Shown here in pieces: positions 2,859-63,656 of a DNA stretch of 64,000 bases. Below the pieces are notes generated by a model, which saw only the letters and a program-made list of their open reading frames with translations, did not search any database and had not been told where the DNA came from. The translations under genes and the position numbers were made by a program. The stretch covers positions 6,076,001 to 6,140,000 of the forward strand of contig CAKKNE010000001.1 in assembly GCA_918797485.1 (NCBI GenBank). Reading direction: 5' to 3'. The DNA is from Pelagomonas calceolata. Lineage: Eukaryota. Each line of letters starts with the position of its first letter. Within the stretch, counting starts at the first letter, position 1.

Positions 2859-3140
2859 ATGGCTGCGACCGACGCTGTCGCCGTACGAGAGGTGGAAATC
2901 TCCTTCGCCGACACAATAAGCGGCCTCCTGTGCCTCGGCGGCATCGGTTTAGACGACGCCTCGGACGGCGACGAAGAAGAGATTTTGATCGATGGGCCGC
3001 GTGGGCGCGCCGACACGGTGCGCGCGTCGAGTTTGTCAATCCCTCTCGCCAGGGGCCCCTGCGTCTACCAATCTCCCGCGTGTACCTCCCCTGTGTCCAT
3101 GACGATGGCTTCCGAGCCCTCTCACGAAACCCGGAGCTAG
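2859..3140 (+). CDS. small hypothetical protein
   Basis: ATG-initiated ORF MAATDAVAVREVEISF... with an acidic patch; no recognised domain. Confidence 0.35.
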   Translation: MAATDAVAVREVEISFADTISGLLCLGGIGLDDASDGDEEEILIDGPRGRADTVRASSLSIPLARGPCVYQSPACTSPVSMTMASEPSHETRS

Positions 3141-3157
3141 TGTGTAAAGACACTAGC
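3136..3157 (+). promoter_or_regulatory. upstream GCTAG..GACACTAGC motif (8-bp inverted-repeat variant)
   Basis: GCTAGTGT-GTAAAG-ACACTAGC, about 130 bp upstream of the ATG at 3286. Confidence 0.6.
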
Positions 3158-3285
3158 AAGCCCAGGTGCTCGAGACGCGGGCGGCCTGGGCCGCTGCAGG
3201 CGTGTGCCGCAGGCGTCTCCGCTTGCTCGTAACGAGTTTGATTAGCACACGAACGGCTGGGTGCTGGCAATCAGCCCTGCGAGAC

Positions 3286-5345
3286 ATGCGGTGCTGCTTA
3301 CTGCTCTGCGCGGCGCTCGCCGCGGCGCCGGACCCGGAGGCCGCAGACACGGCACCCCTCGACGTCTTGCTCGTATCGGTCGGCCTCCACGGCCACGCCG
3401 TTCCCCTCGCGCGCCTCGCCCATCAACTGACAGAGCGCGGCCACCGCGCGACGCTCGCGACGCATAGTACAAAGGAAGCGAAACGCTGGGCGAAGGACGC
3501 GGGCGCGGAGTTTGTCTCATTGGGCGTGCTGGAACCATCACCACAAAAAAAGACGACGTCCATCAACGAGCGCGCGGCGGGTTTGATGGCTGCTGCTTTG
3601 AGGGGCTTCGGCGACGCGAAGGAGGAGAAGAAGGACGCCTGGGACGCGCTCGACGACGCTGATAATGAGGAGGAGGAGGGGCCGCTCGACGCTCGTAGAC
3701 TACTACTCGCGGCGCGGCGCGCGCGCCACGAGGCCGCCGCGCGCTACCTCCACTCTCATCAGAACGACTCCGAGTATGACGCGTCACTCATACCTCCATC
3801 GAAAACATTTGCGAAAGCGTCTCGGAAGGCCACGGCCTTGGGGGCGCTCGCTTGTTTGATGAATGAGTTGTATGTGCCACTCACAAGACCCGTCTACGAC
3901 GCTTTGTATGAACATTTAGCCAATGGTGGTAAAAGACCAGACGTCATCGTGGCGGACGTGGCGACCTTGGGCGCGCGCGACGCTGCGGATGTTTTTGACA
4001 TTCCCCTCGTCATCAACGCGCCTTCATTGTTGTATGGAAGAGCGGGCGGCGCGCCCGGCGCCGCTTTATCTTCCGGATCTTCGCGCTCCGAGAAGGCCCA
4101 GGCCGCGCTCGCGCCGAAACTGCTGGCGCTGGCGTCGTCTTCCGCATTAATGACCTCGAACCACGTCCGGCGCGCCGTCGGCCTGCGAATTCATTCGGGG
4201 CCCGACGAGCTCGTGCCGCCCGCGTTGCTGCGGCGGCCCGCTTCTGTAACGGACTTCCCGTGTGCCGCGCGCGCTTCATTACCACTAGATCCGCCGCCGC
4301 CGCCGCGCAACGGGACGTGCGCGAACGACGGCATCTGCGGCGCGCGGCCGCGCGAGCTCGTGCTCGCGAACACGGCGCCGGGCTTCGACCCCTTTGCTGT
4401 GCACCCGCCGCCGCGCGTCCTCGCGACCGGTCGGTACGCGGCGTCCCATCTTTTACGCCATCGACGCGACGGCGTAGTGGTTGTTGTTCTCGCGGACGGG
4501 TCGCGTCGATGGCGTGAGGGTGGTGTAGAGTCAGATGGGGCACGCTATCGCCGCGCCACGACAAAGACGCCAACGCAGGCCCGCTCCTCCCCGTCGACAT
4601 GGCGGCCTACAACGCGACCGCGCCGCCGGCGGCGCCCGCGTTGGTACGACGCTGGCTCGAGACCGCGGCGAAGGAGGGCCCCGGCGTCGTCGTCGTCTCG
4701 TTGGGACGGATGCCGCGCGTCGAGGGCTGGCAGGCCCACGCTTTAGTCAGGGGCCTGCAGCCGGACAAGGCGGGCAACGAGAGCGCCTGGCGCGTGCTCT
4801 GGGCCCTCGACGAGGATAGAAGAGATTCGCTGCCGCGCGAGCTGCCCGACGAGTTTAGGGTAAGGGGCCGCCTGCCGCTGCTGGCGACGATCGCGCAGCC
4901 CGAGGTCAAGGTCGTCGTGAGCCACTGCGGCGCCGGCGCGGCGATGGAGGCGCTCGCCTTCGGCAAGCCTTTGCTGTGTGTTCCGTTCTTTGGCGACCAG
5001 CGGGACGTCGCGCGGCGCGTCACCGACGCCGCGGCGGGTTTGTATATCGAGCCGCGGCGGCTGACGGAAGAGCGCGTGCGCGAGGCGGTATCCACAGTCG
5101 CGGGCGAGACATATAAGCGCGCGGCGGCGGCGGCGGCGGCGCAGCTCCGGGCGCCGGGCGGCACTGAAGCGGCGGCGGCGGCGGTCCAGGCCTGGGCGGC
5201 CCACGGGACGGTCTGCGGGCCCGACGTGGACCTGCCGTGGCACCGCGAGGCTGGTTTAGATAGACTCTGCGTCGCGCTGGCGGTGGTGATTTTGGTGGGC
5301 GCGGGCGCTTCGCGGGTGCTGAAGGCGCTGTCGGCGTATGCCTAG
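3286..5345 (+). CDS. UDP-glycosyltransferase (GT1) with signal peptide and C-terminal TM; intron 4430-4578
   Basis: GHAVP N-terminal motif, RPDVIVAD, and PSPG-like VVVSHCGAGAAMEALAFGKPLLCVPFFGDQ. Exons 3286-4429 and 4579-5345 join in frame. Confidence 0.9.
4430..4578 (+). other. GT-AG intron with two inverted copies of the Introner core
   Basis: ACGCCATCGACGCGAC (4455-4470) and GTCGCGTCGATGGCGT (4500-4515) form a 16-bp inverted repeat. Removal gives LATG|PLLPVDM. Confidence 0.8.
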
Positions 5346-5410
5346 AGGGGTGGCCGTTTTCAATTTCTAATTCTCATTTTAAGATGCTCTCCCCAGCTGC
5401 ACCGAGAAAA

Positions 5411-14015: not shown

Positions 14016-14324
14016 GCCCGCCGCGGGCGCCGGCGGGAGGGCCTGCTGGAGGTTGCCTTTGGGGCCTTGAATTTGAACAGCGCGGTGTGGTGCGCACGGC
14101 CGGCAGAATCGAGGTACCGGCTTCATGGTCCGCATCAACCGGCTGTTCTAACCAGCGTTTGTCCCAAAATATGATCGTGCACCGCGACGAACGTGCTGTT
14201 TGAGCAACAATGCTCTGCGATGCCAGTCAGCCTGGGCCGGCCCTGCAGCCGCAGGGCGCCCAGGCACCAGGACGACTCCCGGAGACGCGTTTAGAACTGC
14301 TTTGAACTCTGCTCCGCGTAATGA

Positions 14325-14347
14325 GCTAGCGGCGTGAAGTCACTAGC
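14325..14347 (+). promoter_or_regulatory. upstream GCTAGC..CACTAGC motif
   Basis: GCTAGCGGCGTGAAGTCACTAGC in a divergent gap, about 130 bp before the GPI8 ATG. Confidence 0.6.
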
Positions 14348-14479
14348 AAAAGCAAAGCAGCAAGCGCGTGCGCCAAACTGGTCGCGATTGCAAGCATTCC
14401 TACAAACTTGGGTGCCGCTGGGCTCCTATTTGCAGTGAGAACGCAACGCACACGAGAACGCCATCGCTGCGGCTCCACA

Positions 14480-41745: not shown

Positions 41746-41774
41746 GTTAGCCAGCGTGCTGTAAGCCCACTAGC
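41746..41774 (+). promoter_or_regulatory. degenerate upstream motif
   Basis: GTTAGCCAGCGTGCTGTAAGCCCACTAGC in a divergent gap. Confidence 0.45.
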
Positions 41775-43972: not shown

Positions 43973-43994
43973 AACTTTAATACAACTGTTTTGT

Positions 43995-45473: not shown

Positions 45474-45619
45474 GCTGCGTGCTTGCAGTGGTGCTGCTGC
45501 AGGAGTGCTTGCTTCTAGCGGCCGTAGGTGTGCGCACAATTCTCGGACGCGGCGTAAGTATGAGCACGAATGCCAGTGAAGCGCTTGCAGTTTTCTGCAC
45601 GGCTACGCGCGCTCACGTA

Positions 45620-45643
45620 GCTAGCGGACTTTAAGACACTAGC
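45620..45643 (+). promoter_or_regulatory. upstream motif
   Basis: GCTAGCGGACTTTAAGACACTAGC in a divergent gap. Confidence 0.7.
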
Positions 45644-45900
45644 GTTCCCCTGGGTCTCTGTTCGGCGGCAAGCGCTACGGCCGCTAACCCCTTCATCTGA
45701 GGTGCTGGTAGTTCATAGGATTTGTTCGCAGACCCACCGAAACGATCCGCGTTATAGCGCGGTCGCACCAGGAGACCTGTGCCTCCAATCCAGGCAAGAG
45801 GCTCCTTGTGGCGCGTCGCGCGGGGACGCTACGAGGCGCAGCCGCGCCGTCGCGCTGTCGCCGCGGACACGAGATAGCAGCGCTCGTGAATTCGTGAAAT

Positions 45901-48645: not shown

Positions 48646-48685
48646 TAGTAATGTTGTATTCCTGTCTTACCCAACCTCTCTTCTC

Positions 48686-49738: not shown

Positions 49739-50132
49739 GGGGTTTACGTGTCTGGCGCGACCGAGCGTGCTGTAGGGGCTGCGTCGGCGGCGTGCGCGCG
49801 GTGGCAGGTGCTGCGGGGCAGCCGCTTTTGCGAGTGCCGCGCTGAGGCAAAATCCAACAGTGTTCGGGGCGCGCCGCGCAGGAACTCTACGAGAGACACG
49901 AACGAGGCCTGAGAGAGGTACACGAGTCCTCCGGGCCAGGTCACGCTTATCTTTGGCACGCCTCGCCGTCCAGCGGCGCCGCGGGGTCCGAGGGCGCACT
50001 GAAAGAGAGAGAGAGTCGCTTCTAAGAGTCGCTTATTGTGGCTAGCCCCTCTAGCACGGACCCCGAGGGCGCCGCCGCACAGTTGATGGGCTAGAAAAAG
50101 GGACACTCCTCCTAAAAAGGGACAACTCCTCC

Positions 50133-53100
50133 TTAGAACCCGAAGACGTTCGCGCTCTTGAAGGGCGAGCGGTCGTTCGCCGCGGCGCGCCGTTTGCGCG
50201 CCGTGCGCCGCTCCGGGACGTCGTTCTCCTCGTCGGCGTAGGTGACGACCTTCGTTCGCGTCCGGCCCGACCGCCGCGGCGCGACCTCGGGCTCGTCGTC
50301 GTCGTCGAGGCGCCACGCGTGGACGGACTTCTTGGGCCTTGGTTTGGGCTTCGCCCGCGCCGCGTTCCGGAGCCGCGCCGCCGCGGGGCACGTGTGCTTG
50401 CGCCGGCGGTCGCCGGTCGCGCAGGCCTTGCAGTCGACCGGCCCGGCCGGGCTCGACAGGCTCGGCGGCGGCACGCAGCTCGGCCGGTCGAGCGGCGTCA
50501 GCGGGCGGAAGGCCTCGGCGTCGGCGGCCGAGGCGGGCGACGGCTCCGCCGACTCGTCGGCCTCGGACGGCTCGTCGACCGCGACCGGCGGCGCCGCGGC
50601 GGCGGCCCGCGGCCGGCGGCAGGACCGCGGCGGGAGCGCGCCGATCGCCGTGACGTCCGCGATCAAAACCTCGACCTGGTCGCCCGTGCTCTGCCACTTG
50701 ACCAGGACGCTCGCGGCACCCGCGGGGCAGTCCGCGACGACGGTCGCCGGGTGGTCCTCGCGGCCGTCGCGCGCGAAGACGGCGTCGTCGGCGCGGAAGA
50801 GCAGCTCGACGGGCGCCTCGTCGACCGCGTCATCGTCATCGGCGTGCGGGACGACGTAGGGCGTCGGTGGCGGCGCGGCGGCCTTGCGGCCGCGTCGGTC
50901 GTTGACGTAGGCCTCGGCCTCTGAATCGACGTCCGTCGAGGCCTCGTCGTCGACCGATTGGGCGCCGATGACTAGGAGCGAGGCCTCCCGCGGCTTCGCG
51001 CCGTCGACGGCCTCGGGCGTCGGCGGCGCGGCGCAGACCTCGACCTCGGAGTCCGTCGAGGCCTCGGCGGCGTCGGCCGCGTCGACGGTGTCGGCCGAGG
51101 CCGCAATGCTCCACGCGTCCTCATCTGCCACCGGCGCGGCCTCGGCGGGCGCTGCCGCGACGGGCGCGGCCACAGAGGGCGCGGCGACTAGCGCAGCCGC
51201 CTCCGCCGCCGCGAGCCGCGCGGCCAGATCCGCTGAAGTAGCCTCGAGCGCCCGGAGCCGCGGCCGCGACTCCCGCAGCTCCGCCGCGGAGGCCTCGGAC
51301 ACCGCCGCGAGCCGCGCGATCTCCGCCTCCTTGCGCGCGCTCGACGACCGCGCGCGCACGTCGCGCGACCGCGCCTCGCCCACGACCGCCTCCAAGTTCT
51401 TCCGCAGCTCCAGGATCGTCGCGTCCGCGCTCTCGACCTCCGCCGCGGCCCGGGCGCCCTCGGCGACGACGGCGGCGATCTTTTCCCGTAAACGCTCGGC
51501 CTCGCCGGCGGCGGCGTCGCGCGCCCGGACGAGCTCGTTCGTGTCCGCATCGCGCTGGCCCTCGCTATCGCGGAGGCGCGCCCGCGCCGCGGCGAGCTCG
51601 GTCGTGAGCGTCGCGACCTCCGCGCGCGCCGCGTCTGCACTTTGAGCCGCGTCGGCGCGCGCCTGGGACAGGGCCTTGCGCAGGCCCGCCGCGGCGTCGC
51701 GCGCGCCGGCGGCCTCGGCGCGCGCGCGCGCCACCTCGCCGTTCCGCGCGTCGGCCTCGTCGGCGCGTCGCGACGATAAAAGCGCCGTCGCCTCGGCGGC
51801 CTCGCGCCGCGCCTGCAGCACCTCGGCGCGCCACTCGCGCGCATTGCGCGAGAGTTCGGCCTCGACGTCGCGGGCGTCGTCGCGCGCGCGCGCCGTCGCC
51901 TCGTCGAGGCGCGCCTGGGCGCCCGCCGCGTCGGCGCGCGCGTCCGCGGCGTCGTTCCGCGCCTCGACGAGGGCGTCCGCCAGCTCCGCCGTCGTCGCCT
52001 CGGCCGCCGTTGCCTCGCTCTTCAGCCGGTCGGCCTCGGCCTCGGCCGCTCGGAGGGCGTCGCCGTGGAAGGCCGCCGCGCAGCGCAGCTCCTCGAGCTC
52101 CTCCTTCACATCCCGCGCCGCGGCCTTCGCCGCGGCCGCGTCGGCCTCGGCCGCGCGGAGGGCCTCGCCCTCGGTCTTTGACGTCGTCAGCGTGCGCTCC
52201 AGGGCCGCTTCAGCCGCGTTCGCCGCCGTCACATGGGTGTCGATCTCGGCCCGCGCCGCGGCGGCGTCGGCGCGCGCCTCGTCGGCGGCCGCCTCGGCCG
52301 CGCGGCGGGCCTCGCCTTCCGTTTGCGCCGTCGTGCGCATCCGCTCGAGCTCGGCTTCTGCGGCCCGCGCCGCCGCCTCGTGCGTCTCGAGCTCGGCCCC
52401 GACGCCCTCGAGCAGCCGCCGCGCCCGGTCCGCGTCGGCGCGCGCCTCCTCGGCCGCCGCCTCGGCCGCTCGCAACGCTTCGCCGTCGGTCTGCGCCGCG
52501 GCTCGCACGCGCTCGAGCTCCTGTTCGACGGCCCGCGCGGCGGCCGCGGCCGTCTGCGCCTCGGCCCGCGCCGCCGCCGCGTCGTCGCTCGCTTTCGAAG
52601 CGCGGTCGTTCGCCTCGACGATCGCCTTCGAGGCGTCCTCGTGGGCGCGCGCGAGGTCGGCCGCGGCCAACTTGCGCGCGGACTCGAGCGCGGCGAGGTC
52701 CGCCGCGGCCTTGGTCCGCGCGGCCTCCAATGCAGACGCCGCCGCCGCGTCGCGGTCCGCCGTCGACTGGCGCTGCGCCGCCTCGTGCGCCGCCCGCTCG
52801 TCCAGCAACGCCGCCTCAGCTTTCTTAGCGTCCTCCGCCGCGCGCCGCACCGCGAGCTCGTGGAGGTTCCTCGCCGCGCCGAGCTCGGATCGGACGTCGG
52901 CGAGCGCTTGAAGAGCCCGCGCCGCGTCGGCGCCCGCGCGGTGGCGCGTCGCCTCGAGCTCGGCTTTCACCGCGTGGAGCTCGGCCGTGACGGCGCCGAC
53001 GTCCGCCGCGTGCGCGGTCGTCGCGGCGTCGAGCGCCTCCTGCAACCGGCCCACGTCCGCCGCGTGCTGTGTTTGCGCGGCCGCGAGCTCCTCGGCCAGC

Positions 53101-54914
53101 GCGGACCGCACGCCGCGCGCGTGCGCCGCGGCCTCCTTCCGGCGGTCGCTCGACTGCTTCTGCGCGCGCGCGTCGGCGAGCGCGCGCTCCGCGGCGAACG
53201 CCGCTCGTAGTGAATCGAGCTCGGCGTCCGCCGCCTCGGCGAGCGTCGCGTGCCCCGCCTCCGTCGCCGCGAGCGCTGTTGTGTACTCGGCCCGCACCTT
53301 ATCGAGCGCGGCGGCGTGCGCGTCTTCCATGGACTTCTTTTGCCCGTGGAGCGCCGCGGCCTGACCCCGCTCGCGCGCCGCCGCGTCTGCGCCGCAGCGC
53401 TGGGCCCAGGCCGCGGACCGCGCCTGCTCCTCCCGGAGCTCGTTCTTCATCGTCCGCGCGGCGTCGATCGCCTCGCTCAAGCCCTCCTCGAGGAGCTTGT
53501 TCTCCGCCTCCTTCTCCGACGCGTCCCTCGTCAAACTCTTGAGCTCGCCCGCGAGGTGGCGCGCCGCGTCGCGCGCCCGCTTCACGTCCTTCTGGGCTCT
53601 CCCTGCATCATTCGTGGCCTTGGCAAGCGCCGCTCGACACTCTTCGAGCGCATGCGCCGCGTCACTCGAATTCGCGGCGTCGACCGTCGCCGCCGCGTGA
53701 GCGGCATGCGCGGCATGAGCGGCATCAACGAGGCGCGCCCTTAACGCGCAGAAGCACTTGAGGTGCGCCGTCGCGTCGGGCCCGCCCTGGGCCAGGAAGG
53801 CGTTCTTCCTTTTCGCTTCGTCCAGGGCCCGCTCCAGCGCCGCCAAATCTTCGGCCGTCGGCGCGCGCGGCGGCGCGACGTGGACGCGGTCGACGCCCGC
53901 GACGCGCGACGCGCGGTCCGCGTACCTTAATGTCGAGAGCGTCTCTTCGCGCGACGCTAACGTCGGCGCCACGCAGGCGATTAGGACCGTCGCCGCCGTG
54001 CCTCCCAAACTATCTTGTAGTAACCGTGTCAACTTCGAGTCCCTATAAGGCACGTGGTCGGCCTTTTTCTGCTCCGACAGCGCCGAGATGACCTGGCCGA
54101 GGGCCAGCAAAGACTGGTTGATCGTCCTAGCTTCTCTCCTCCGGGCGTTGCCGCTCTCGTTCGTCCGGCCCGCGCTCTCCGACCCGGCCAAGTCAGCTAA
54201 TAAAAAGCGGCCGCGCCGCGTTGCCGCGTCGCCGCGCCTTCGCGTTTCCACTCTTACTTCAAATACAGCGTGCGACCGCGACGAGCGGTCGTTCATCGCC
54301 GTGGCTGCGGCAGCTCTACGCTCGCCGCCCTCCTTCAGGACCCGCTTCGCCTCCAGGGCATTGCGCGGCTTCCTTTCACTTAAACCGACGACGGTCACGC
54401 CGCCCTGGAGCCGATTCTGCAGGTTCAACGCCTTGGGCTGGGGCGGCGGCCGGTCGGGGTCCGTCTGCACCGGCGCCGGCACCAGCAGGTCCCGCACCTG
54501 CTCGTTATAAATTTCGAGGTAACTCACCGACACCTCACTGGTCTCGAAGTCGCCTTCATTCGTAGCCTTGAAGATGCGGTCGATGACCGTCGGGAGTAAG
54601 CCGTCGATCGTGTGCGTCTTGCCCGCCGCCGTCTGGCCGTAGGCTAATACTGTGGCGTTCCTTCCATCCACGACGCGCTGCACGAGCTGCTGCGCGTTCG
54701 CGGCCTTGGCCACGTCGCACTCGTTGGCGGTTTCGCTCAGCGATGTCGCGTACTCGAAGGTCTCTTCTCTCTGTCCATCGACAATAACGCGGTTCTGCCG
54801 CCCGTCGTCGCCGGCGTACGCGCGGACGATGGGCGTGTCGCCGTCGCGCTGCTCGTAGGCGTTGAGCGGACGGATTCTTACCACCACTTTTACGGCGGCT
54901 GCTGGGGTCGTCAT
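50133..54914 (-). CDS. kinesin with N-terminal motor, long Ala-rich coiled coil and possible Tudor-like tail
   Basis: VKVVVRIRP, AYGQTAAGKT, SYLEIYNE, NDRSSRSH, DLAGSE, HVPYRDSKLTRLLQDSLGG. Confidence 0.95.
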   Translation of the reverse strand: MTTPAAAVKVVVRIRPLNAYEQRDGDTPIVRAYAGDDGRQNRVIVDGQREETFEYATSLSETANECDVAKAANAQQLVQRVVDGRNATVLAYGQTAAGKTHTIDGLLPTVIDRIFKATNEGDFETSEVSVSYLEIYNEQVRDLLVPAPVQTDPDRPPPQPKALNLQNRLQGGVTVVGLSERKPRNALEAKRVLKEGGERRAAAATAMNDRSSRSHAVFEVRVETRRRGDAATRRGRFLLADLAGSESAGRTNESGNARRREARTINQSLLALGQVISALSEQKKADHVPYRDSKLTRLLQDSLGGTAATVLIACVAPTLASREETLSTLRYADRASRVAGVDRVHVAPPRAPTAEDLAALERALDEAKRKNAFLAQGGPDATAHLKCFCALRARLVDAAHAAHAAHAAATVDAANSSDAAHALEECRAALAKATNDAGRAQKDVKRARDAARHLAGELKSLTRDASEKEAENKLLEEGLSEAIDAARTMKNELREEQARSAAWAQRCGADAAARERGQAAALHGQKKSMEDAHAAALDKVRAEYTTALAATEAGHATLAEAADAELDSLRAAFAAERALADARAQKQSSDRRKEAAAHARGVRSALAEELAAAQTQHAADVGRLQEALDAATTAHAADVGAVTAELHAVKAELEATRHRAGADAARALQALADVRSELGAARNLHELAVRRAAEDAKKAEAALLDERAAHEAAQRQSTADRDAAAASALEAARTKAAADLAALESARKLAAADLARAHEDASKAIVEANDRASKASDDAAAARAEAQTAAAAARAVEQELERVRAAAQTDGEALRAAEAAAEEARADADRARRLLEGVGAELETHEAAARAAEAELERMRTTAQTEGEARRAAEAAADEARADAAAARAEIDTHVTAANAAEAALERTLTTSKTEGEALRAAEADAAAAKAAARDVKEELEELRCAAAFHGDALRAAEAEADRLKSEATAAEATTAELADALVEARNDAADARADAAGAQARLDEATARARDDARDVEAELSRNAREWRAEVLQARREAAEATALLSSRRADEADARNGEVARARAEAAGARDAAAGLRKALSQARADAAQSADAARAEVATLTTELAAARARLRDSEGQRDADTNELVRARDAAAGEAERLREKIAAVVAEGARAAAEVESADATILELRKNLEAVVGEARSRDVRARSSSARKEAEIARLAAVSEASAAELRESRPRLRALEATSADLAARLAAAEAAALVAAPSVAAPVAAAPAEAAPVADEDAWSIAASADTVDAADAAEASTDSEVEVCAAPPTPEAVDGAKPREASLLVIGAQSVDDEASTDVDSEAEAYVNDRRGRKAAAPPPTPYVVPHADDDDAVDEAPVELLFRADDAVFARDGREDHPATVVADCPAGAASVLVKWQSTGDQVEVLIADVTAIGALPPRSCRRPRAAAAAPPVAVDEPSEADESAEPSPASAADAEAFRPLTPLDRPSCVPPPSLSSPAGPVDCKACATGDRRRKHTCPAAARLRNAARAKPKPRPKKSVHAWRLDDDDEPEVAPRRSGRTRTKVVTYADEENDVPERRTARKRRAAANDRSPFKSANVFGF

Positions 54915-55220
54915 CTTTCCAGCGCGGCGCCGGCGGCGCTCGGTTTTGTTGGTCGGCACTGTTGGGGGTGAAACGGCCCCAAGTACGCAGCGCGCGAAGC
55001 TGCTGAAGCGTACAGCGCGACGCAGCGCCTGGCGGTCTTCTGAAGCCGCTACAGCGCTGTCCAAGTCGCCGCGAAGCACACAAAAAAGCGACCTGCGCCG
55101 CAACAAACGAGTTTTTGTCGAGGGCCGAGCGGGTCGCGTCCGGTGCTCACGCACCCGTCCAGCCGCCTTAGAGACTTCTCCTGGAGCTGCTCTGGGGTTT
55201 GGAAGGGAATCCGATTTGTT

Positions 55221-55245
55221 GCTAGTGTCTTACAAGGCCGCTAGC
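55221..55245 (-). promoter_or_regulatory. upstream motif
   Basis: Minus strand reads GCTAGCGGCCTTGTAAGACACTAGC, in the divergent gap. Confidence 0.72.
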
Positions 55246-55501
55246 TAATAACAGCACTGCAAGCGGGCACTTTTTACAGCCTGCTAGCACGTACAAGCGC
55301 GTTTCGCACGTTTCTCACTCATTTGTGATCGTGCCGCAATTGCAATCCCACTCGTGCGCCTGAAGAGCGTCCCAGAGCCCTGCTGCATAGAGGCTGCACT
55401 CAGCTGCACACGGCGAGCAAGCGGACAGCAGCACTCCAGTCGGCGCTTGAAAGAGCGTCCCAGAGCCCTGCACTGAAGGCTGAACACTTGACAAGCCAAT
55501 T

Positions 55502-56146
55502 ATGACGCGCATCATCGTAGTCCTGGCCTGCGCGGCCTCTGCCTTCACGCCGCCAACCCAACCGCGCCCTCGGACACAACTCGCGGCAGGCTTCGGCAAG
55601 ACGACAAAGAGCAAGGACAAGGCCGTCCAGATCAAGGGCGCGCCGAAGCCGATGGACAAGCAGTGGGACAACTACTTCGCCCTGAAGGACGCGGACGGTG
55701 AGATCCGGGAAGTTTGGTTGACGACCCCGGGCGGCGATAAGCCTTTACCCTTAGGCTTCGTGGCCGCAAAAAAAGACGGGAGCCCGAAGGAGGCCGTCGC
55801 GTTGCAGAAGAAGTTGATTATGTGGTGCGCCGAGGGGCTGCATCCGCGCCTCTCGCCCTTCCTGCGGGGCAAGATGAAGGACGGTCAGGCGAAACTGGAG
55901 CTCAACCTGTGCAAAGTCCGGGAGCTGAGCGAGGAGGAGGCCAAGAAGGAGGAGGAGGCCGGCGACCCGCTCGCCGGGGGCATCGGCCCCGGCGGCCCGC
56001 TGGACCCGCTCGGCCCGGTCCGCGCGCCGCCGTCGCTGAAGGCTGCGGACGTGGGATTCATGCCCTTCAAGTCGCCTATTGATGGGGAGCAGGCGGCCCT
56101 GCGGAAGCCGTCGAAGCGCGAGATGAGCAACGGCGTCGTCCGATAG
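55502..56146 (+). CDS. plastid-targeted hypothetical protein
   Basis: Bipartite presequence MTRIIVVLACAASAFTPP (ASAF motif) followed by AAGFGK. Confidence 0.8.
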   Translation: MTRIIVVLACAASAFTPPTQPRPRTQLAAGFGKTTKSKDKAVQIKGAPKPMDKQWDNYFALKDADGEIREVWLTTPGGDKPLPLGFVAAKKDGSPKEAVALQKKLIMWCAEGLHPRLSPFLRGKMKDGQAKLELNLCKVRELSEEEAKKEEEAGDPLAGGIGPGGPLDPLGPVRAPPSLKAADVGFMPFKSPIDGEQAALRKPSKREMSNGVVR

Positions 56147-56364
56147 GTCAGACGCGCCAGTAATACGCCGTTCACGCCGTCGTCGCGCGCGCGCGCGCGT
56201 CGTCACGTCACGTCGCCGTCCGTCCGTCCGTCACGTCACGTGCTGGGCATGCGCCGCCGCATCGCGCGCATCGCGCATCGAACGCCGCGCCGTCCACGCC
56301 GTCGCATGCGCAGCTCAGGCTCGCGAATGGCTCGCGCGAGATGAGCAACGGCGTCGTCCGATAG
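56116..56364. repeat. 31-bp direct repeat that duplicates the gene end, flanking a 187-bp insert
   Basis: GCGCGAGATGAGCAACGGCGTCGTCCGATAG at 56116-56146 and 56334-56364. Confidence 0.92.
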
Positions 56365-56389
56365 ACATACCGAGTAATCTCCTTACTTA

Positions 56390-57478
56390 CTACTGCGGCC
56401 GTGTGCGGAGCTCGGCCCGCCGCGACGCGATCTTCGAGCGCCCCTCGTCGCACGCCGAGCGTAACTCGGCGACCCAGGCCGTCCGCGGCGTCACGGGCCG
56501 CGTCGGACCGTCGTCGTCGTCGTCGTCAACCGCCGTCAAGAACGGGCCCGGCGACGCTTTCCGCCGCGCCTTGGCCGCGTTCTCGGCGCGCGCGCGCGCC
56601 GCTTTGCTACGCGCACGGCATGAATTGGCCATGTCGTCGAGTCGATTCTCGACCGACCGCGCCAGGTGCCTATCCAGTTTCCGCTCGAGGGCAGCTGCCG
56701 CGGCGTCGTCGTCGTCCTCGTCGTCGTCGAGGACGCCGTCGACCTCGACGCCGGCCGCGCGCGCGGCCTCCTCATCCAACGCGCGCTCCGCGGCCTCGAT
56801 AGCCGCCTTGTCCGGCATCCTATCCGTTGAAAGTGCGCCGTCCTCCTTCTCGAAGGCGGCCCAGGCCTCGGCGATGCGCGGGTCCCGCGACGGCTGGTCG
56901 TCGATGACGTCCTGCAGCCACTGCATGATGTCGCCCGGCGACGACACCTCCTCCTCGTCCTCGTCGTCAGAGCCGTACTCCGCCCGCAGCCGCTCGTTCT
57001 CCGCCAAAGCTTCGGCGGCCTCGCGGTCGAGGGCCTCCTCGTCTAGCTCTGCGACGGCCGCCGCCGTGCCCGTGATAAGCTCCGTGAGCCGTAACGCGTC
57101 GAGCGCCGCGCGGTCGAGCGCGTCGTCCGCGGTCGGCGCCACGGCGGCCGCCTCGAGCTCGGCCGCCGTGCCGGCGAGTTGCTCCGGCAATGGATCGGCG
57201 ACCGGCTCCGGCGCCGCGCTGGACCGCGGCGTGAGGCGCGGCAGCGTTGACGCGTCCGTCTCCCGCCGCGCCGGCTTCTGCAAAGCCGCGTCGAGCCGCG
57301 CGGCGAAGTCCTCCTTCGTCCGTGCCGGCGCCCGCGCCGGGGCTGCAGGCGCCTCCTTCTTCGCGCGTTCCGCCGCGCGCTTCTTGGCGCGGGCAGCCTT
57401 GCGGTCCTGGTCTTGCTTTTCCTGGGCCTCGACGCGGGCCTTGGCCGCGGCCAGCCAGGCCGGCGGGGCCTTGGTCAT
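56390..57478 (-). CDS. hypothetical Ala-rich, charged protein
   Basis: 362-aa ATG ORF with coding codon bias. Confidence 0.7.
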   Translation of the reverse strand: MTKAPPAWLAAAKARVEAQEKQDQDRKAARAKKRAAERAKKEAPAAPARAPARTKEDFAARLDAALQKPARRETDASTLPRLTPRSSAAPEPVADPLPEQLAGTAAELEAAAVAPTADDALDRAALDALRLTELITGTAAAVAELDEEALDREAAEALAENERLRAEYGSDDEDEEEVSSPGDIMQWLQDVIDDQPSRDPRIAEAWAAFEKEDGALSTDRMPDKAAIEAAERALDEEAARAAGVEVDGVLDDDEDDDDAAAAALERKLDRHLARSVENRLDDMANSCRARSKAARARAENAAKARRKASPGPFLTAVDDDDDDGPTRPVTPRTAWVAELRSACDEGRSKIASRRAELRTRPQ

Positions 57479-58212
57479 GGGATCGGCTGCCCGGAGCGCG
57501 TACGCGGCGTTAACAGCCCTAATTAAGCCCCCAAACCGCCCAAAACGCGGCGCAAAACCCGATCTTTAGGCAGGGAGGCCTAGGGGTGGAGGCCTAAATC
57601 GGTGTTCCCATGCCCTGGATGGGAGCTTGGTCATTCGAGCTTGACGTCTGGTTGTTCGACATTTGCGGGCTCATGGTGATGGTGTTGTTGCTGAAAGTCA
57701 CACTGGGGCTGATCATCGGGTTGCTCGCAGCAGCCTCAGGCTGAGCTGGTTCCTCGTTGTTGGACTCCGTGATCTTTCTCTTTTTGTCCATGACTGATCC
57801 GATGTTGTCCGGTGGAGGTTCTGGGGGGTACCAGAGGCAAATGGGTGGTGGGTGGATGAGAGCCCGAGTGGGGCCCGGGCCAAAAAAACGAGTTTGGGGC
57901 TCACCCTCTTGACGCTCAGGGGGGTAAATTTAAACCGCGCGGTTTTTTTTTTGCCCCCAAAAACGCCGCCACCTCGTAGCAGGCGTCGCTGGCTACCCAA
58001 GCAAGATTGCAGGACCAACCTCCCAGCCCAATCGATGACACTAGCAAGCTCGTTCGCGCCGCATCGCGCGGCGCGACATCAGGCGGGGCAGCAATCGAAG
58101 AACGCAAACTGCTTCTTTTGGGCTGCCGGCGCGCGCGTGCGAAGGATATCTACTGGAAACATTTACTACTGGGCGGGCTGCCGGCTGCCCATCGATGCGA
58201 TAGATCTAAAAT

Positions 58213-59544
58213 ATGTGGCGCCGCTGGCTCATCGCCGCGGCGCTGGCCGCCGCCAGCGACGACCTGCCGTCGAACATGTTGACGCTACGCAACGTCTGCG
58301 TTCAAGAGACAACAATCACGCTGCACGCGTCGACGGCCGACGCCAAGGGCCAGCTCTGCGGCCTGACGGCCTGCCACGCGCCGCAGGCGCGCGAGCGGTG
58401 CCGCGAGAACGACGACGACGCGTTCGTGGCCGGGGTCCTGGCCGAGGCGCTGCCGCGCTTCCGGGTGCGGCGGTCGATGGAGGCCTACCCCGTCGCGACG
58501 GCGCGACGATACGAGCGAGTGGCGCTCTTCACGCTCACGGGCAACATCGGCCACGACCTCTACAACGGGTTGCTGGATGTTTTTTCGTCATCGCTGTCGC
58601 GGCGCTTCGACGCGCTGTTCGCGAACGTCATGTGGTTCACGGGCCGGCAGAGCTGGGACGCCGCCGTCGCCCGGCCGGACACGTCCTGGTCGTTGACGGT
58701 CGTGGACGCCTTATTTAACGAAACGCAAACACCGCTCTACTGGGCGAGCGACGCGCACATGGTGGGGAGCCGCTTCGAGCACCTCCCTTCGATAGGTCTC
58801 TGCGCCGACGAGTTGGTCGTGAGGGCCCAGGGGCGCCTGGCGGAGAACGTGGGCTGGGACGCCCTCCCTGCCTTGCCGCGGCTGCGGGACAAGGTGCTCG
58901 CGCGCGTCCTCACCGATACATCAAAGCGGGAAAAGCTCACGCTGTACACGCGCGGCGACGCGCGACGGCGGCGCTTCCAGGGCAACGTCCAGAACTTCGC
59001 GACGCGACTCGGCGCGACGAAGGTGCTAGCTAGAATGCCGCGGGGCGACCCGCGCCAGCAGATCGCGCTCTACGCGTCGTCGGACGTCGTCGTGGCGCCC
59101 TTCGGCTCGAACACGGCGAACAGCGTCTTCATGCGGCCGGGATCTACCTTCGTCGAGGTCACGCCGCTCTGCGCGTCGACCTGCGAGGAGGGCTGCCACC
59201 CCTACTCGAAGACCCTGAGCGGGAACATGGCCGACAACTACAACATTTCACGGGCAAACGCGTGTCTGAACTTGATGGCCGACGGGCCGCCGCTCCATCG
59301 CTACTCGGGCGTGAACTATCACATCGTGCCGACGTGCTCGGGGACGCTGCGGTGCGCCTCTGGTAAAATGGTCGAGCCGTCCGGGCGGCCCGTCGAGATG
59401 CGGAAGGCCTGGAAGGCGAACTTCAACGACGACTTAGATGTGGACGCGGCCCTGCCCCGCGTGCTCGAGATCCTGCGGGGGCGGTCTCCGCAAACGCGCG
59501 TCGCGCCGTTCACGGTGGCGTGCCCCCGAGTTAGTCAAAATTAA
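58213..59544 (+). CDS. glycosyltransferase family 61-like protein
   Basis: Signal peptide, LRNVCV, GNIGHDL, YTRGDARRR, QQIALYASSDVVVAPFGSNTANSVFMRPGSTFVEV. Confidence 0.85.
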   Translation: MWRRWLIAAALAAASDDLPSNMLTLRNVCVQETTITLHASTADAKGQLCGLTACHAPQARERCRENDDDAFVAGVLAEALPRFRVRRSMEAYPVATARRYERVALFTLTGNIGHDLYNGLLDVFSSSLSRRFDALFANVMWFTGRQSWDAAVARPDTSWSLTVVDALFNETQTPLYWASDAHMVGSRFEHLPSIGLCADELVVRAQGRLAENVGWDALPALPRLRDKVLARVLTDTSKREKLTLYTRGDARRRRFQGNVQNFATRLGATKVLARMPRGDPRQQIALYASSDVVVAPFGSNTANSVFMRPGSTFVEVTPLCASTCEEGCHPYSKTLSGNMADNYNISRANACLNLMADGPPLHRYSGVNYHIVPTCSGTLRCASGKMVEPSGRPVEMRKAWKANFNDDLDVDAALPRVLEILRGRSPQTRVAPFTVACPRVSQN

Positions 59545-60827
59545 TTTTTAGGCCTCCGAAACCTATCCAGCAGCTTCCTCGACCGCGTCGACGGCTCCTT
59601 TTTGATGATCCCCGGAGTGTCGTAGAACTCCTTCATCGCCGCCATGCGGATGTCCGCCTCGTCGAGCGTGCCGCTCCGGCACACGTCCAACTCATCAAAA
59701 CGCGCCAGGATCGCGTCGACGTCCGTCCGCTCGACGGTGCCGGCCTCGACGAGCACGGAGGACAGGTACTCGACGCGCGTGATTTCCGACCCCGCGCCCT
59801 CGATGGTCGACATCTCCCGGATCATTTCTGGAGAAAGTTCCCTGGCTAGGACCTTTTCCTTCTTTGCGGCGACGGCGCGCGCGGCGACGTGGCCGATGCA
59901 GTCCGTTAAGAGCGTCGTGGAAATGAGGAGATACACGACGGAAAAGTGCCTCGACCGGGCGTGGTTCAGCGGCAGGTCGCCGTAACCGACCGTGGTGGCC
60001 GTGACCACCGACCAGTATAACGCGTCCACGATGGGGTGCTCCCAGCCGCCTTTCCCGCCCCAGTAGCCCTCGGAGAACGCCATGTACGTCGCGCCCACCA
60101 CAATGTTCAGAAGCAATAGCGCAAAGGACGCCAGTTCCTTCCAGGGCTTCGTCGTCTTGTCTCCGGAAGTTTCGGCCTGCTCCTTCAGGCGCTGGGCCAG
60201 CCGCTCTTCCGCCGCGCTCAGGTTCTTCGCGACGGCTCCTACTAAAATGGAGGCCACTAATGTAACACCAATACCAATATAGGCCGTCGCGAACAGCTTG
60301 CCGGACCGCGTCTTCGCGCAGTAGTCGCCGTACCCCACCGTCGTTAAGGTAACGACGCCGTAGTACAAACTTTCTAGAATGGACCAGCCCTGCGTCCGGT
60401 GCCAGAAGGCCCAGGCTCCTAGGAAATAGGCGGCCAACGCCATGAGCTGCCACCCTATTTTATCTGTGAGCGGTTCGAGCAGCTTGCCGAGCGGCCGCAG
60501 GATCTCGCCCATCTTGCTCAGTTGCGGCCGGATCGACCACTTCTTGCCCACTCGATTCAACACGCGCGTCGCCGACTTCATCGTCCGCGAGTTGGCCGAG
60601 CTCTTGACCAGGCGAGACCCCGCCTTCACGAGGTTCTTACCCTGGAAGGTCAGCAGCTTGCCGACGCGTCGCCCAACGACGCCGGCGCCGCGCCGCGGCA
60701 CCGGGAAGCCCATTGGCAGCGGTGCGAGGAGTGGTGCTCGCTTGGTGTGGGGTGCTATGAAGGCTGCTGCTCTCCATGTCGTGATTGCGAGCGCCACAGT
60801 CAGTCGCATGCATCCAGCGCTCTTCAT
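59541..60827 (-). CDS. two-pore (TPK/KCO-type) K+ channel with C-terminal EF-hand and bipartite plastid presequence
   Basis: Two pore loops (TLTTVGYGD, TATTVGYGD), EF-hand FDELDVCRSGTLDEAD, N-terminal AAAFIAP. Confidence 0.92.
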   Translation of the reverse strand: MKSAGCMRLTVALAITTWRAAAFIAPHTKRAPLLAPLPMGFPVPRRGAGVVGRRVGKLLTFQGKNLVKAGSRLVKSSANSRTMKSATRVLNRVGKKWSIRPQLSKMGEILRPLGKLLEPLTDKIGWQLMALAAYFLGAWAFWHRTQGWSILESLYYGVVTLTTVGYGDYCAKTRSGKLFATAYIGIGVTLVASILVGAVAKNLSAAEERLAQRLKEQAETSGDKTTKPWKELASFALLLLNIVVGATYMAFSEGYWGGKGGWEHPIVDALYWSVVTATTVGYGDLPLNHARSRHFSVVYLLISTTLLTDCIGHVAARAVAAKKEKVLARELSPEMIREMSTIEGAGSEITRVEYLSSVLVEAGTVERTDVDAILARFDELDVCRSGTLDEADIRMAAMKEFYDTPGIIKKEPSTRSRKLLDRFRRPKN

Positions 60828-61052
60828 GGCTTTTGCAATAATGTGGAGGCAGTGACGGACACCTCGAAGTCTCCGACGAGTCGTCGCAGTCGAATGTTGC
60901 TGCTCTTTGCCTCCGAGTTATGTAGCGTAGTAACATACTAGCTTCACGCAAAAAAAGTGGCACTCAAGTCCATTGACGCAGTGCGCATCGACGCGAGAGG
61001 CGGCTGCCCTTGGTATCGCCACGCGACGTCGCGGTGGCACCGCTGTCGAAGC

Positions 61053-62522
61053 ATGCGGCTGTCCGCCGTGACGCTATGCATCGTGGGCGTGGCTGCCCGC
61101 GGCCGCCGCCGCCGCATCCCGTACGAGAAGAAGGTGCACGTCCAGCCGCCGCCGCTACCGCATGACGACGGTACGCCGTGGGGCTGCGGACCGATGCCCA
61201 GCAACAGCACGTCATATTACCTGCGCGACTTACTGCAGAACTGGATCGCGAAGCAACAATTTCAGCGGAGGCACACGGTGTACCAAGGTGGAGGTAGGTC
61301 TGTGGTGGTGATGGCGAAGCGGCACGGTCTAGGGAACCGACTGAACAATGTGATCGGGGGCTTCATGCTCGCGCTGGCGACAGGACGAGCATTGGTCATA
61401 AACTGGCCGCCGTCCGCGTGTCGGAACAAGCGGAACTGCGACCCTACGTCCATCGATGATTTATTCGACCCGCCCGTCGGCGTGAAGTGGGGGAGGATGC
61501 AAGGCTGGAACAAGGACCTGGACGCAATGTGCGCGAACGGGCCCTTCGTGATCAGTCAAAACGGCCACGACGCCGTCCAGCAGGTGTTGGATATGGACCT
61601 GGGGAATTATCACGAGCAACCGAAGATGGTCTGCGCGGTCTGTGATCGGAGCTGGTCCTACGGCGTGAGTTGCAACCCTTTATTGCGGTGCGCGATGCCG
61701 ACGCCGTGGTACGTCTACGGGCTCCTGCAGCGGTGGCTCTTACGACCGAAGCGGGCCGTCGTCAACAGGGTGCGACAGACGCTCGCGAACCACACGTGCG
61801 CCGTGGGCGTCCACCTCCGCAAGGCGGACAACAGTAAGACGAAGTGGGCCACGGAGGAGTTGTTACGGGAGACCTACGCTTCCGCCCTAAAACGGCGGCC
61901 CGAGTTTAAGAACGGAGACCTGCGCTACGGCATCTACGTGGCGGCCGACGGCGAGTCGACGCAGACGAAGAAGCGTATTGAAGCGTTCGCGCGGTCCGTC
62001 GGCGCGCCTTTGTTGGAGCGCGCGGCGCGCTTCAAGGCCTCCCGAGATTCCGTGCGCGCCATGCAGGACGCGCTGGCCGAAAACTACGTCTTGTCGTCGT
62101 GCGTCGAGATCCTGCCGCGCGGCTCGGGCGCGTCGACGTTCCACGATCTGGCCGTGGCACGGGCGGCCTTCGAGCAGGGCTGGGAACAAACTCGCGTCGA
62201 CGCCTTCGTGCACAAGTCGGAGCCCTCGGACCACGCCTTGGTGCCGGCGCGCTGCCCGCCGCGGACGGGCGAGACGGCCGACGCCGTCACGCGGTGCCCC
62301 TGTTTGTCGAACGAGACGAGCTACCGGGACCGCGTCGCGCCGTGGCCCGGGCCCGATCTGGTCTGGGCCCACCCCTGGCGCGACCCCTACGAGAACAGCA
62401 CGCGGTCGGCGCGCATGCGCCTCGTCAAGGAGCGGATCCGGGCGCGCCGCGAGGCGCGGGACGCGGCGCGCATGTCGAGCATCGCGGGGGCGGGCGTCGC
62501 GGGGACGCACGGGACGTTTTGA
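61053..62522 (+). CDS. fucosyltransferase-like protein (GT-B; GT37/GT23/GT11 clan)
   Basis: GLGNRLNNVIGGFMLALATGRALVINW, VGVHLR, IYVAAD, ALAENYVLSSC, ASTF. Confidence 0.85.
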   Translation: MRLSAVTLCIVGVAARGRRRRIPYEKKVHVQPPPLPHDDGTPWGCGPMPSNSTSYYLRDLLQNWIAKQQFQRRHTVYQGGGRSVVVMAKRHGLGNRLNNVIGGFMLALATGRALVINWPPSACRNKRNCDPTSIDDLFDPPVGVKWGRMQGWNKDLDAMCANGPFVISQNGHDAVQQVLDMDLGNYHEQPKMVCAVCDRSWSYGVSCNPLLRCAMPTPWYVYGLLQRWLLRPKRAVVNRVRQTLANHTCAVGVHLRKADNSKTKWATEELLRETYASALKRRPEFKNGDLRYGIYVAADGESTQTKKRIEAFARSVGAPLLERAARFKASRDSVRAMQDALAENYVLSSCVEILPRGSGASTFHDLAVARAAFEQGWEQTRVDAFVHKSEPSDHALVPARCPPRTGETADAVTRCPCLSNETSYRDRVAPWPGPDLVWAHPWRDPYENSTRSARMRLVKERIRARREARDAARMSSIAGAGVAGTHGTF

Positions 62523-62539
62523 GTTTTTAAGTTTCTGTA

Positions 62540-63583
62540 CTACTTCCAGTCCCCGACGCAGTCGAGGTAGTGGAGGAGATCCGCGAGGTTTTTGGTAGCG
62601 ATGCCTGCGAAGCTCAACTTCACGGCGTCGCCGCGGATGCCGAAATGCGTCGGGCAAACGCGGCCGTCCCCATCTTGATAAGAACCAGGCAGGGGAATAG
62701 GCGCTGACTTTGTTATAATCTCGGCTTCGCAAACTGGCGTCGCCATGGAACGCATGTTCACCAACCGTCGGGCCTCCAGGCACATCGCAAATTCGTGTTC
62801 AGGGGTGTCATAATAACCCTCGAGATTTATATGGTCCTTAGACAGTTGCTCCTTGTGAGGGTGTTGAAAATTGAGCCGCAGTCTATCCTCAAACACTAAA
62901 AGACTCTTCCCGTCCTCGCGCACGAGAAAGACCCTGGCGCTGCCAACAAGTCTTTCCAACAAGTCTTCCCACTCATCTAAGACCGTCCATACCCCACCAG
63001 CAGCTCGTTCAGCCTCCTCCGTCCACTCTTCGGTGGGCCTGGCGGCAAGGAAATGAGCCTCTTCAGGGCGGAGCGCTTGATTGAACATCCATCCTTCCGA
63101 CAGTTCGTAATAGTTTATCCCCGTCCTGCTTATTACCCTGTCGTGGTTCGCGCCGGTGAGTTCGAGTTTCGCACAAGTATGGGCGTCCTCGACACCATAA
63201 TCCCATGCTTCGACATCAGTAAGCTGCCCGCGCTGCACGAGGCGTCCGCCGCAGTCCAGCTTAATTTCGCAGACGACTTCACATGTGCGCGTCACGACGG
63301 TGTCACGAGGGCGCTGCCTCGACTGCTGTGCGAGGCTCGTCAGGACGCGCAGCGGGTGCGTGGCCGCGAGGCGTCTCTTGACGAACTCGCTGCCCAGCAC
63401 GGGTAGCTGTTCCTCGAGCGCCTTGAGCACCGTGGGATCCGTCACCGTCGCGGTGCGCTTCGACGTCGCGCACAGCGCTATGAAATCGATAGCAGGCGTG
63501 GCCTCGACCAGGGCAGCCCCACAGGCAGCCAAGACATCAGCTATTGATGGATGTGGCCTCTCATCATGACTAATGGACGTCAT
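62540..63583 (-). CDS. hypothetical protein with weak F-box-like N terminus
   Basis: 347-aa ORF, lower GC than neighbours; DFIALCATSKR resembles an F-box end. Confidence 0.65.
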   Translation of the reverse strand: MTSISHDERPHPSIADVLAACGAALVEATPAIDFIALCATSKRTATVTDPTVLKALEEQLPVLGSEFVKRRLAATHPLRVLTSLAQQSRQRPRDTVVTRTCEVVCEIKLDCGGRLVQRGQLTDVEAWDYGVEDAHTCAKLELTGANHDRVISRTGINYYELSEGWMFNQALRPEEAHFLAARPTEEWTEEAERAAGGVWTVLDEWEDLLERLVGSARVFLVREDGKSLLVFEDRLRLNFQHPHKEQLSKDHINLEGYYDTPEHEFAMCLEARRLVNMRSMATPVCEAEIITKSAPIPLPGSYQDGDGRVCPTHFGIRGDAVKLSFAGIATKNLADLLHYLDCVGDWK

Positions 63584-63633
63584 ACCCTTTTTTCGCACTC
63601 GTTGTGATTAAAATCTCGAACCGTCGGAAGCTT

Positions 63634-63656
63634 GCTAGTGTCTTACTAATGCTAGC
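63634..63656 (-). promoter_or_regulatory. upstream motif
   Basis: Minus strand reads GCTAGCATTAGTAAGACACTAGC, centred in a 122-bp divergent gap. Confidence 0.7.

Follow-up and report, generated by a model that had tools for sequence, protein, structure and literature searches.

A bipartite sequence element between divergent genes of the marine alga Pelagomonas calceolata, a candidate bidirectional promoter element

The stretch analysed here, referred to as the window, comprises 64,000 nucleotides of the pelagophyte alga Pelagomonas calceolata (assembly GCA_918797485.1, contig CAKKNE010000001.1, positions 6,076,001 to 6,140,000 of the forward strand), and the subject of this work is a short bipartite element that recurs in it beside gene starts. 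The window sequence is present in open-ocean metatranscriptomes and has a GC content of 63%, the value also given for the species in the accessible part of its genome report (PMC9481584). Genes were called with an open reading frame (ORF) caller that relies on codon usage. They are densely packed (78% of the window is coding), contain few short GT-AG introns and are of ordinary eukaryotic kinds, including genes for RRS1, a cyclin, an Rrp5-like protein, Snf7, Cpn10, a kinesin, a DEAH helicase, a U-box protein and a DUF285 protein. An original prediction, made from the letters of the window, had listed 13 copies of the element, described it as oriented toward gene starts and proposed a promoter function.

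Sequence of the element and its distribution among gene gaps

The element has the consensus A-GCTAGC-G(G/T)C(C/A)T-GTAAGACACTAGC-AAGC; it is about 24-30 bp long, bipartite and of high information. Its halves are called box A, on the GCTAGC side, and box B, on the ACTAGC side. All 13 predicted sites were found again at the same coordinates and on the same strands. They are given below with their scores, in bits, against the profile hidden Markov model (HMM) described after the list.

3136..3157 (+): variant GCTAGTGTGTAAAGACACTAGC, with the ATG at 3286 lying 129 nt downstream; 13.9 bits for the box B half
14325..14347 (+): variant in the divergent gap 14136-14479; 10.5 bits
26934..26958 (+): copy whose box B carries a 2-nt insertion, divergent gap 26804-27088; 21.3 bits
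30836..30855 (+): copy with a spacer of 1 nt, between Cpn10 (-) and Snf7 (+); 21.2 bits
32874..32896 (-): consensus copy upstream of an RRM/eIF4B-like gene (ATG 32779), tandem gap; 33.5 bits
35778..35801 (+): copy in the divergent gap 35662-35858; 22.4 bits
39433..39457 (+): copy central in the 44-nt untranscribed gap 39424-39467 between divergent transcripts; 22.6 bits
41746..41774 (+): weak variant in the divergent gap 41603-42001; fragments of 4.1 and 3.1 bits only
45620..45643 (+): copy within the 58-nt untranscribed gap 45598-45655; 20.3 bits
55221..55245 (-): consensus copy between the kinesin gene (-) and a gene at 55502 (+); 31.4 bits
58037..58050 (+): half copy, box B only (GACACTAGCAAGCT); 9.2 bits
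60922..60942 (+): weak variant within the 49-nt untranscribed gap 60912-60960; no profile match
63634..63656 (-): copy upstream of the gene 62540-63583 (-), beyond the last called gene; 26.0 bits

The exact pattern GCTAGCGGC-N0-3-GTAAGACACTAGC occurs twice in the window against an expectation of 0.00, and none of 100 shuffles contained any match. When up to two mismatches are allowed, GTAAGACACTAGC occurs eight times, while 100 shuffles gave a mean of 0.50 and a maximum of 3. An unbiased word count found CACTAGC 13 times in non-coding DNA, each time in a separate gap, and 0 times in 51 kb of coding DNA (a 105-fold enrichment); CACTAGCA, CCGCTAGC and AAGACACT occur 10, 9 and 8 times in non-coding DNA, respectively, and 0 times in coding DNA. 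For the profile HMM, built from 122 metagenome copies, the reversed window served as control and reached at best 6.0 bits, a value exceeded by 11 window sites. Eight of these score 20.3-33.5 bits (26934, 30836, 32874, 35778, 39433, 45620, 55221 and 63634) and are exactly the set that the original prediction had called near-consensus; the other three (3147, 14323 and 58037) score 9.2-13.9 bits. The profile reported only the two fragments at 41746 and nothing at 60922, yet both sites are placed relative to transcript ends in the same way as the strong copies.

Fuzzy regular expressions had also been tried for degenerate copies and were superseded by the profile, since the relaxed full pattern matched the window and its reversed control equally often (7 times each) and box B, with three errors allowed, matched them 28 and 26 times. 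Partial box-A-like matches, CTGCTAGCA, lie near start sites at 55274-55290 (-) and 17802 (+); their score of 6.4 bits is borderline, and a + strand RNA 5' pile-up (55288) sits within the first of them.

The element is restricted to non-coding DNA by gene starts. No site lies within a called coding sequence, in keeping with what had been noticed at the outset, and sites occupy 10 of the 16 divergent gaps called, 2 of the 8 tandem gaps and none of the 16 convergent gaps, with profile backing for 8 of the 10 divergent ones. The preference for divergent over convergent gaps (Fisher p = 2.5e-4) agrees with the earlier statement that most copies lie between divergent genes; convergent gaps being short (about 2.6 kb in total, versus 6.6 kb for divergent gaps), the contrast is weaker per base, with about 4 sites expected there and 0 seen. 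The genes beside the element are functionally unrelated and serve many functions.

Placement relative to transcript 5' ends, and orientation

Transcript ends were taken from stranded polyA raw reads (two runs) and from transcript contigs of two other studies, with mapping over 26001-46000 and 45001-64000. The first mate is antisense, as checked on the RRM gene (-), where the first-mate depth was 285 on the + strand and 3 on the - strand, and on Snf7 (+), where the reverse holds; in these data poly(A) ends show up as 'begin' and RNA 5' ends as 'end'. The 5' ends found on the two sides of each copy are as follows.

26934-26958: ACTAGC side, contig end 26971 and pile-ups 26981 and 26983; box A side, none listed
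30836-30855: ACTAGC side, + pile-up 30886; box A side, - pile-up 30706
32874-32896 (-): ACTAGC side, contig end 32868 and pile-up 32843; box A side, a gene 3' end
35778-35801: no 5' end among those listed
39433-39457: ACTAGC side, contig ends 39468 and 39480; box A side, contig ends 39423 and 39390 and pile-up 39408
41746-41774: ACTAGC side, 41815 and 41817 (+); box A side, 41733 (-)
45620-45643: ACTAGC side, contig ends 45656 and 45667; box A side, 45597 (contig) and 45562
55221-55245 (-): ACTAGC side, contig ends 55167 and 55087, of uncertain strand; box A side, + pile-up 55288
58037-58045: ACTAGC side, contig ends 58059 and 58062 and pile-up 58082; box A side, none close
60922-60942: ACTAGC side, contig end 60961 and pile-up 60963; box A side, contig ends 60911 and 60909
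63634-63656 (-): ACTAGC side, contig end 63608; box A side, beyond the window

The element itself is untranscribed: no contig among those listed spans a copy, and on either side the distance from its edge to the 5' end of a transcript is 6-43 nt in all but three measurements. Pile-ups of read 5' ends are found 20-37 nt past the ACTAGC edge at five sites (26981/26983, 30886, 32843, 58082 and 60963) and 13, 25, 43 and 130 nt past the box A edge (41733, 39408, 55288 and 30706, respectively), while contig ends lie 6-26 nt from the edges at most sites and 41-54 nt at 41746 and 55221. The dinucleotide CA or the trinucleotide CAA, resembling an initiator (Inr), directly precedes six of nine pile-up positions. 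The distance from the element to the ATG varies from 51 to 307 nt; given how tight the distance to the 5' ends is, it is the start of the transcript, not that of the coding sequence, that the element follows.

At several gene pairs the element can be placed between two divergent transcripts. The stretches containing neither contig nor pile-up measure 44, 58, 49 and 81 nt at 39433, 45620, 60922 and 41746, and the centre of the element is 0.5, 5, 4 and 14 nt from the centre of the respective stretch, a placement that has a joint probability of 1.2e-4 for these four divergent pairs if elements are placed at random within the ATG-to-ATG gaps. Of six divergent pairs with RNA data, three thus have a core of 44-58 nt with the element at most 5 nt from its centre; the separations at the other three are 81, 121 and 180 nt. 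Read depths of the flanking genes range from below 1 to about 285. This placement between divergent transcript starts, together with the concentration in divergent gaps, supports the proposal that the element belongs to promoter regions and fits the alternative of a bidirectional promoter element.

The supposed orientation fared differently. It is true that the ACTAGC end faces an ATG at every window site (at 51-307 bp), but in divergent gaps the other end faces one too, and since nearly all window copies lie in such gaps, any orientation there points at an ATG. Among the metagenome copies presented below, a gene start is faced by the ACTAGC side in 52 of 69 called cases, the corresponding figure for box A being 54 of 72 (Fisher p = 1.0), and in tandem gaps 12 copies point toward the gene start versus 8 away from it (p = 0.50). 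Orientation is therefore without predictive value for gene direction, and the description of the element as oriented has to be given up. In the RNA data, 5' ends are about equally near on both sides, and the read depth of the flanking genes has no consistent bias.

The ends of the element, GCTAG...CTAGC, are indeed inverted over 5-6 bp, but consensus copies form no significant hairpin (z from +0.8 to -1.5); the 8-bp stem seen at 3136 is real (z = -4) but peculiar to that copy. A spacer that varies on one side only and a conserved asymmetric centre, GTAAGACA, argue against a simple site for a symmetric homodimer. Speculatively, a complex of two parts or a protein with several reading domains, for instance of the poly-zinc-finger or multi-Myb type, might fit better than a rigid homodimer.

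Copies beyond the window and other observations

A scan of metagenome contigs for GCTAGC-N1-7-GTAAGACACTAGC returned at least 125 distinct copies at no fewer than 124 loci, numbered with the prefix L where they have to be told apart; the counts that follow concern the 125 copies listed. Among spacer lengths, 5 nt accounts for 71 copies and 4 nt for 37; the spacer consensus reads G(G/T)C(C/A)T. At position -1, 58% of the copies have A, as do 78% at +1 and 72% at +2, after which G-C-A is favoured more weakly. Information content is at background further out than 1 base upstream or 5 bases downstream. The loci listed share no flank homology apart from a few orthologous or paralogous pairs, so that the earlier view of unrelated flanks and no larger repeat holds. 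Although 62% of that DNA is coding, called ORFs overlap none of the copies. For 50 copies both neighbouring genes were called; divergent gaps hold 28 of these copies, tandem gaps 20 and convergent gaps 2, and 48 of the 50 touch a gene start. The profile adds 14 degenerate copies in these loci, none of them in ORFs, with a reversed control of at most 8.9 bits.

The element is conserved at orthologous promoters. In three orthologous pairs of loci (L008/L079, L065/L105 and L039/L069), whose coding parts align at about 80-92%, it stands out as an island of conservation amid upstream DNA that has diverged. Two of these pairs show a 1-nt difference in spacer length, the spacing of the boxes thus tolerating a one-base change. 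Such an island in diverged DNA, combined with the 1-nt difference in spacer, is a signature of purifying selection on a putative protein-binding site.

Several features accompany the element at particular loci. Between L008 and L079, conservation extends to another island, CGTTTGCGCTTGACAATTGTCT...CCACGTGGG, which has CACGTG at its core and is located some 60-110 nt upstream of the element. Double copies stand head to head in L018 (about 1245-1301) and L113 (about 272-300 plus the seed), with their ACTAGC ends 3-6 nt apart, and in tandem, 41 nt apart, in L100 (300-388). Eight of the 125 copies have a second motif, approximately TTCCAGGGCTCCCGCGTTTAGGAAATC, just upstream of the element, always with the two in one and the same orientation to each other: it lies 2-13 nt upstream of box A in L009, L054, L075, L097, L109 and L114, 25 nt upstream in L026 and 53 nt upstream in L017. 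Two more matches to it are far from any copy, and the window has none; some of the promoters may use it as a partner site.

A viral and a prokaryotic signal were considered and rejected. The full pattern has no match in viral contigs, where the 15-mer TGTAAGACACTAGCA has 24 matches, a number within the estimated chance count, all of them in contigs of 33-50% GC and none with box A upstream. Prokaryotes gave 9 matches where about 30 would be expected by a rough estimate (19 fixed bases, 596 Gb), and those in low-GC Xenorhabdus and Dependentiae records are chance-like. Five of the 9, on contigs from ocean bacterial or archaeal metagenome-assembled genomes (L125, L127, L128, L129 and L132), have canonical spacers and a GC content of about 56-66%; L129 and L132 are identical in sequence, though they come from two different assembled genomes. 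No excess of further copies over a backwards control was found in the five assembled genomes searched, and these contigs look like misbinned eukaryotic contigs of this lineage or chimeric contig ends.

Other observations concern the neighbourhood of individual copies or the rest of the window. On the box A side of the 32874 element lies a repeat of about 96 nt (32949-33044), which matches L051 and L088 at 94-97%, has no Rfam match and stands between two occurrences of a direct repeat, TAGTCCTAGCACCGTAACATCGAC (about 32918 and about 33024; region 32918-33047). Its 41-nt core (32967-33007) attracts about 400 reads per run, and their differing flanks point to abundant expression from other copies. 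Within the kinesin gene (50133-54914, -), + strand RNA covers the motor-domain region at a depth of 31-121, compared with a sense depth of at most 2 (53243-55167); a 150-nt skip at 53825/53976, supported by 55 and 34 reads, reads GC..AG on the + strand when shifted by one base, and this RNA looks like a spliced antisense transcript. In each run, 49-76 reads match a stretch of 43 nt (50025-50067) that belongs to a tandem gap, upstream of the gene 48686-49738; left and right of the stretch these reads run on into unrelated sequence, and within it they show two fixed differences, at 50046 and 50054. This stretch contains GGCTAGCCCCTCTAGCA and is a short sequence common to an abundant transcript elsewhere. 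The region 27600-29400, which includes four GT-AG introns of 68-84 nt, gave many read joints of the 'opposite strands' or 'goes back' kind (one of them joins 27646 to 29365) and, at 28076-28107, several hundred reads with loose ends, which points to an inverted or repeated gene family with other, highly expressed members. The tRNA search of the window returned only a tRNA-Pro(AGG) gene (15644-15717, -), which is unrelated to the element; it is located in a convergent gap and overlaps the last 16 nt of a predicted ORF with a VWA domain (15702-17234).

Interpretation and comparison with known systems

The finding is real, statistically solid and biologically coherent, and the element is a probable promoter element, new in its type of sequence and unusual in architecture. 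It is probably a lineage-specific, orientation-independent core-promoter element that is read by a sequence-specific factor, a reading that draws on where transcripts begin around it and on its conservation. A putative sequence-specific protein or complex would bind the element, position the start sites and nucleate initiation by RNA polymerase II both leftward and rightward from one site, so that the element would act as a substitute for a TATA box. The TATA consensus is TATAWAWR, and the only A/T-containing part of the element, its centre TGTAAGAC, has 3 mismatches to it when compared by eye. About half of the divergent promoters in the window have the element.

Several points weigh against this interpretation. 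About half of the promoter-type gaps in the window are without the element, so that it is not required for initiation in general, and any frequency for the whole genome is an extrapolation. That the short convergent gaps (about 2.6 kb) hold no site carries only modest weight per base. Of the 13 sites in the window, two (41746 and 60922) are indistinguishable from chance by sequence and are retained on context. The profile and the metagenome copies both derive from the pattern in the window, which makes agreement at the fixed positions circular and leaves spacer, flanks and context as the independent features. The 5' ends are RNA-seq pile-ups and contig ends, not cap-selected ends, and are approximate start sites; they are 121-180 nt apart at two of the six divergent pairs with data, and the contig end at 55167 may come from antisense RNA.

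The main alternative, possible but rather improbable, is that a general regulatory factor or one that excludes nucleosomes has its site here, or that the element is an insulator at gene boundaries; it would open the promoter and leave the choice of start site to the Inr-like CA at the edges of the open region. In favour of this alternative, the element is high in information, bipartite with a variable spacer, independent of orientation, present at many functionally unrelated genes and enriched in divergent gaps; the CA that precedes 5' pile-ups, the 5' ends 121-180 nt apart at two pairs and the range of read depth in the flanking genes (below 1 to about 285) also speak for it. However, yeast general regulatory factor sites lie some 80-150 nt from start sites, whereas here 5' ends are 6-43 nt from the element in all but three measurements, and an untranscribed core of 44-58 nt leaves little room for such a factor in addition to two initiation complexes.

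Doubtful, on the present evidence, is a more specific scheme in which the element would be a single-site bidirectional core promoter of archaeal style, a central element of about 24 bp replacing two separate core promoters at many gene pairs. Its A/T-containing centre, set between the inverted arms GCTAGC...CTAGC, would then resemble a TATA-like centre between opposed BRE-like arms, on which TBP and TFIIB, or a TFIIB-family paralogue akin to Rrn7, could load either way, giving start sites about 50-70 bp apart.

Another chromatin function that favours promoters, such as a recognition site for replication origins, a recombination site or a cohesin loading site, is very unlikely. Some yeasts do have sequence-defined origins in nucleosome-free intergenic DNA, and a long, highly specific, non-transcribed intergenic site would suit such a role; but 11-13 elements per 64 kb is a density far above that of usual origin spacing, and neither the tight placement relative to transcript 5' ends nor the near emptiness of convergent gaps (0 of 16 in the window, 2 of 50 among the metagenome copies listed) would be expected. 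A miniature mobile element, transposon end or footprint inserting in promoters, as the inverted GCTAG...CTAGC ends, the dispersal in hundreds of places and the 8-bp stem of the 3136 copy could suggest, can practically be dismissed in view of a length of only 24-30 bp with no target-site duplication and no homology past 1 base upstream or 5 downstream, the retention at orthologous positions across diverged lineages, the lack of a significant hairpin in consensus copies and the lack of longer relatives among the 124 loci listed. A structured or small RNA was rejected as well, for no listed contig covers a copy, predicted folds of consensus copies have z values from +0.8 to -1.5 and there were no Rfam matches.

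The statement in the original prediction that no description of the motif was known still stands: no account of it was found in the open literature, supplements and subscription journals being outside the scope of that search. Motif strings retrieved unrelated primers only, the main text of the P. calceolata genome paper does not contain the words 'motif', 'promoter' or 'intergenic', later transcriptome papers on this species do not contain 'promoter', 'cis-regulatory' or 'MEME', and the open literature yielded nothing relevant on promoters of pelagophytes, Pelagomonas or Aureococcus. If the preferred reading of a core-promoter element is true, a large share of promoters in a gene-dense, GC-rich marine alga would use a long lineage-specific sequence instead of a TATA box, and in many divergent pairs the two genes would have one initiation site in common. 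The element would also offer a way, open to testing, of reaching its reader factor and supply a ready-made minimal bidirectional promoter for genetic tools, none of which are known for this group. The motif could in addition be used as a landmark in the annotation of start sites and could flag contigs of this lineage in metagenomes.

General-factor and insulator sites are familiar from several systems (Reb1, Abf1 and Rap1 in yeast; BEAF-32, DREF and M1BP in Drosophila; ZNF143 and NRF-1, at bidirectional promoters, in vertebrates). They are high-information, orientation-tolerant sites at many unrelated and often divergent promoters, usually further from the start sites. The element is like them in information and in tolerance of orientation, and none of them is known to share its sequence.

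In its working, the nearest eukaryotic precedent appears, by analogy, to be the HomolD box of Schizosaccharomyces pombe. As described in the available part of the source, it is a non-TATA box located 39-52 bp upstream of the start site, directs initiation in a TATA-like manner, functions when inverted and is read by the TFIIB-like protein Rrn7 (PMC10253590). The element is similarly non-TATA and sequence-specific and lies a few tens of bp from transcript 5' ends, and its occurrence in both orientations at single-gene promoters (12 versus 8) matches the working of an inverted HomolD box reported there (PMC10253590). HomolD, as far as the same portion of the source goes, is an octamer (CAGTCACA) found mainly at ribosomal-protein genes, in contrast to the bipartite element of 24-30 bp, which stands beside genes of many functions and often lies between two divergent genes. 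There is no likeness in sequence, neither the octamer CAGTCACA/G nor its inverse TGTGACTG being found in the element consensus.

In architecture, the shared-TATA bidirectional promoters of Thermococcus kodakarensis and Haloferax volcanii, both archaea, may be regarded, again by analogy, as the nearest precedent. In T. kodakarensis, according to the accessible portion of the source, divergent start sites are mostly 52 bp apart around one shared TATA box. Three of the cores in the window, of 44, 49 and 58 nt with the element at most 5 nt from the centre, are comparable in size; unlike the archaeal promoters, the element belongs to a eukaryote, its centre is not TATA-like and the separations are less uniform (44-180 nt). 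For bacteria, the part of the report available describes pseudo-symmetrical promoters of Escherichia coli that engage polymerase in either orientation (PMC12825309).

Lineage-specific core elements are also found in another stramenopile without detectable TATA boxes, the oomycete Phytophthora infestans, whose INR, FPR and DPEP motifs occur each in a minority of genes, as stated in the accessible text (PMC3599244). They are like the element in being lineage-specific core elements. In that same text, INR plus FPR spans the start site and DPEP lies downstream, so that these motifs are transcribed and directional (PMC3599244), unlike the element, which is upstream, untranscribed, orientation-independent and unrelated in sequence. 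Finally, promoters of Giardia lamblia, in the portion of the report at hand, are bidirectional by virtue of degenerate AT-rich TATA/Inr elements and yield sterile antisense RNA (PMC1885649). The likeness lies in short promoters of a compact genome that fire both ways; the candidate counterpart in P. calceolata differs in being a long, specific, GC-rich motif that would serve two protein-coding genes.

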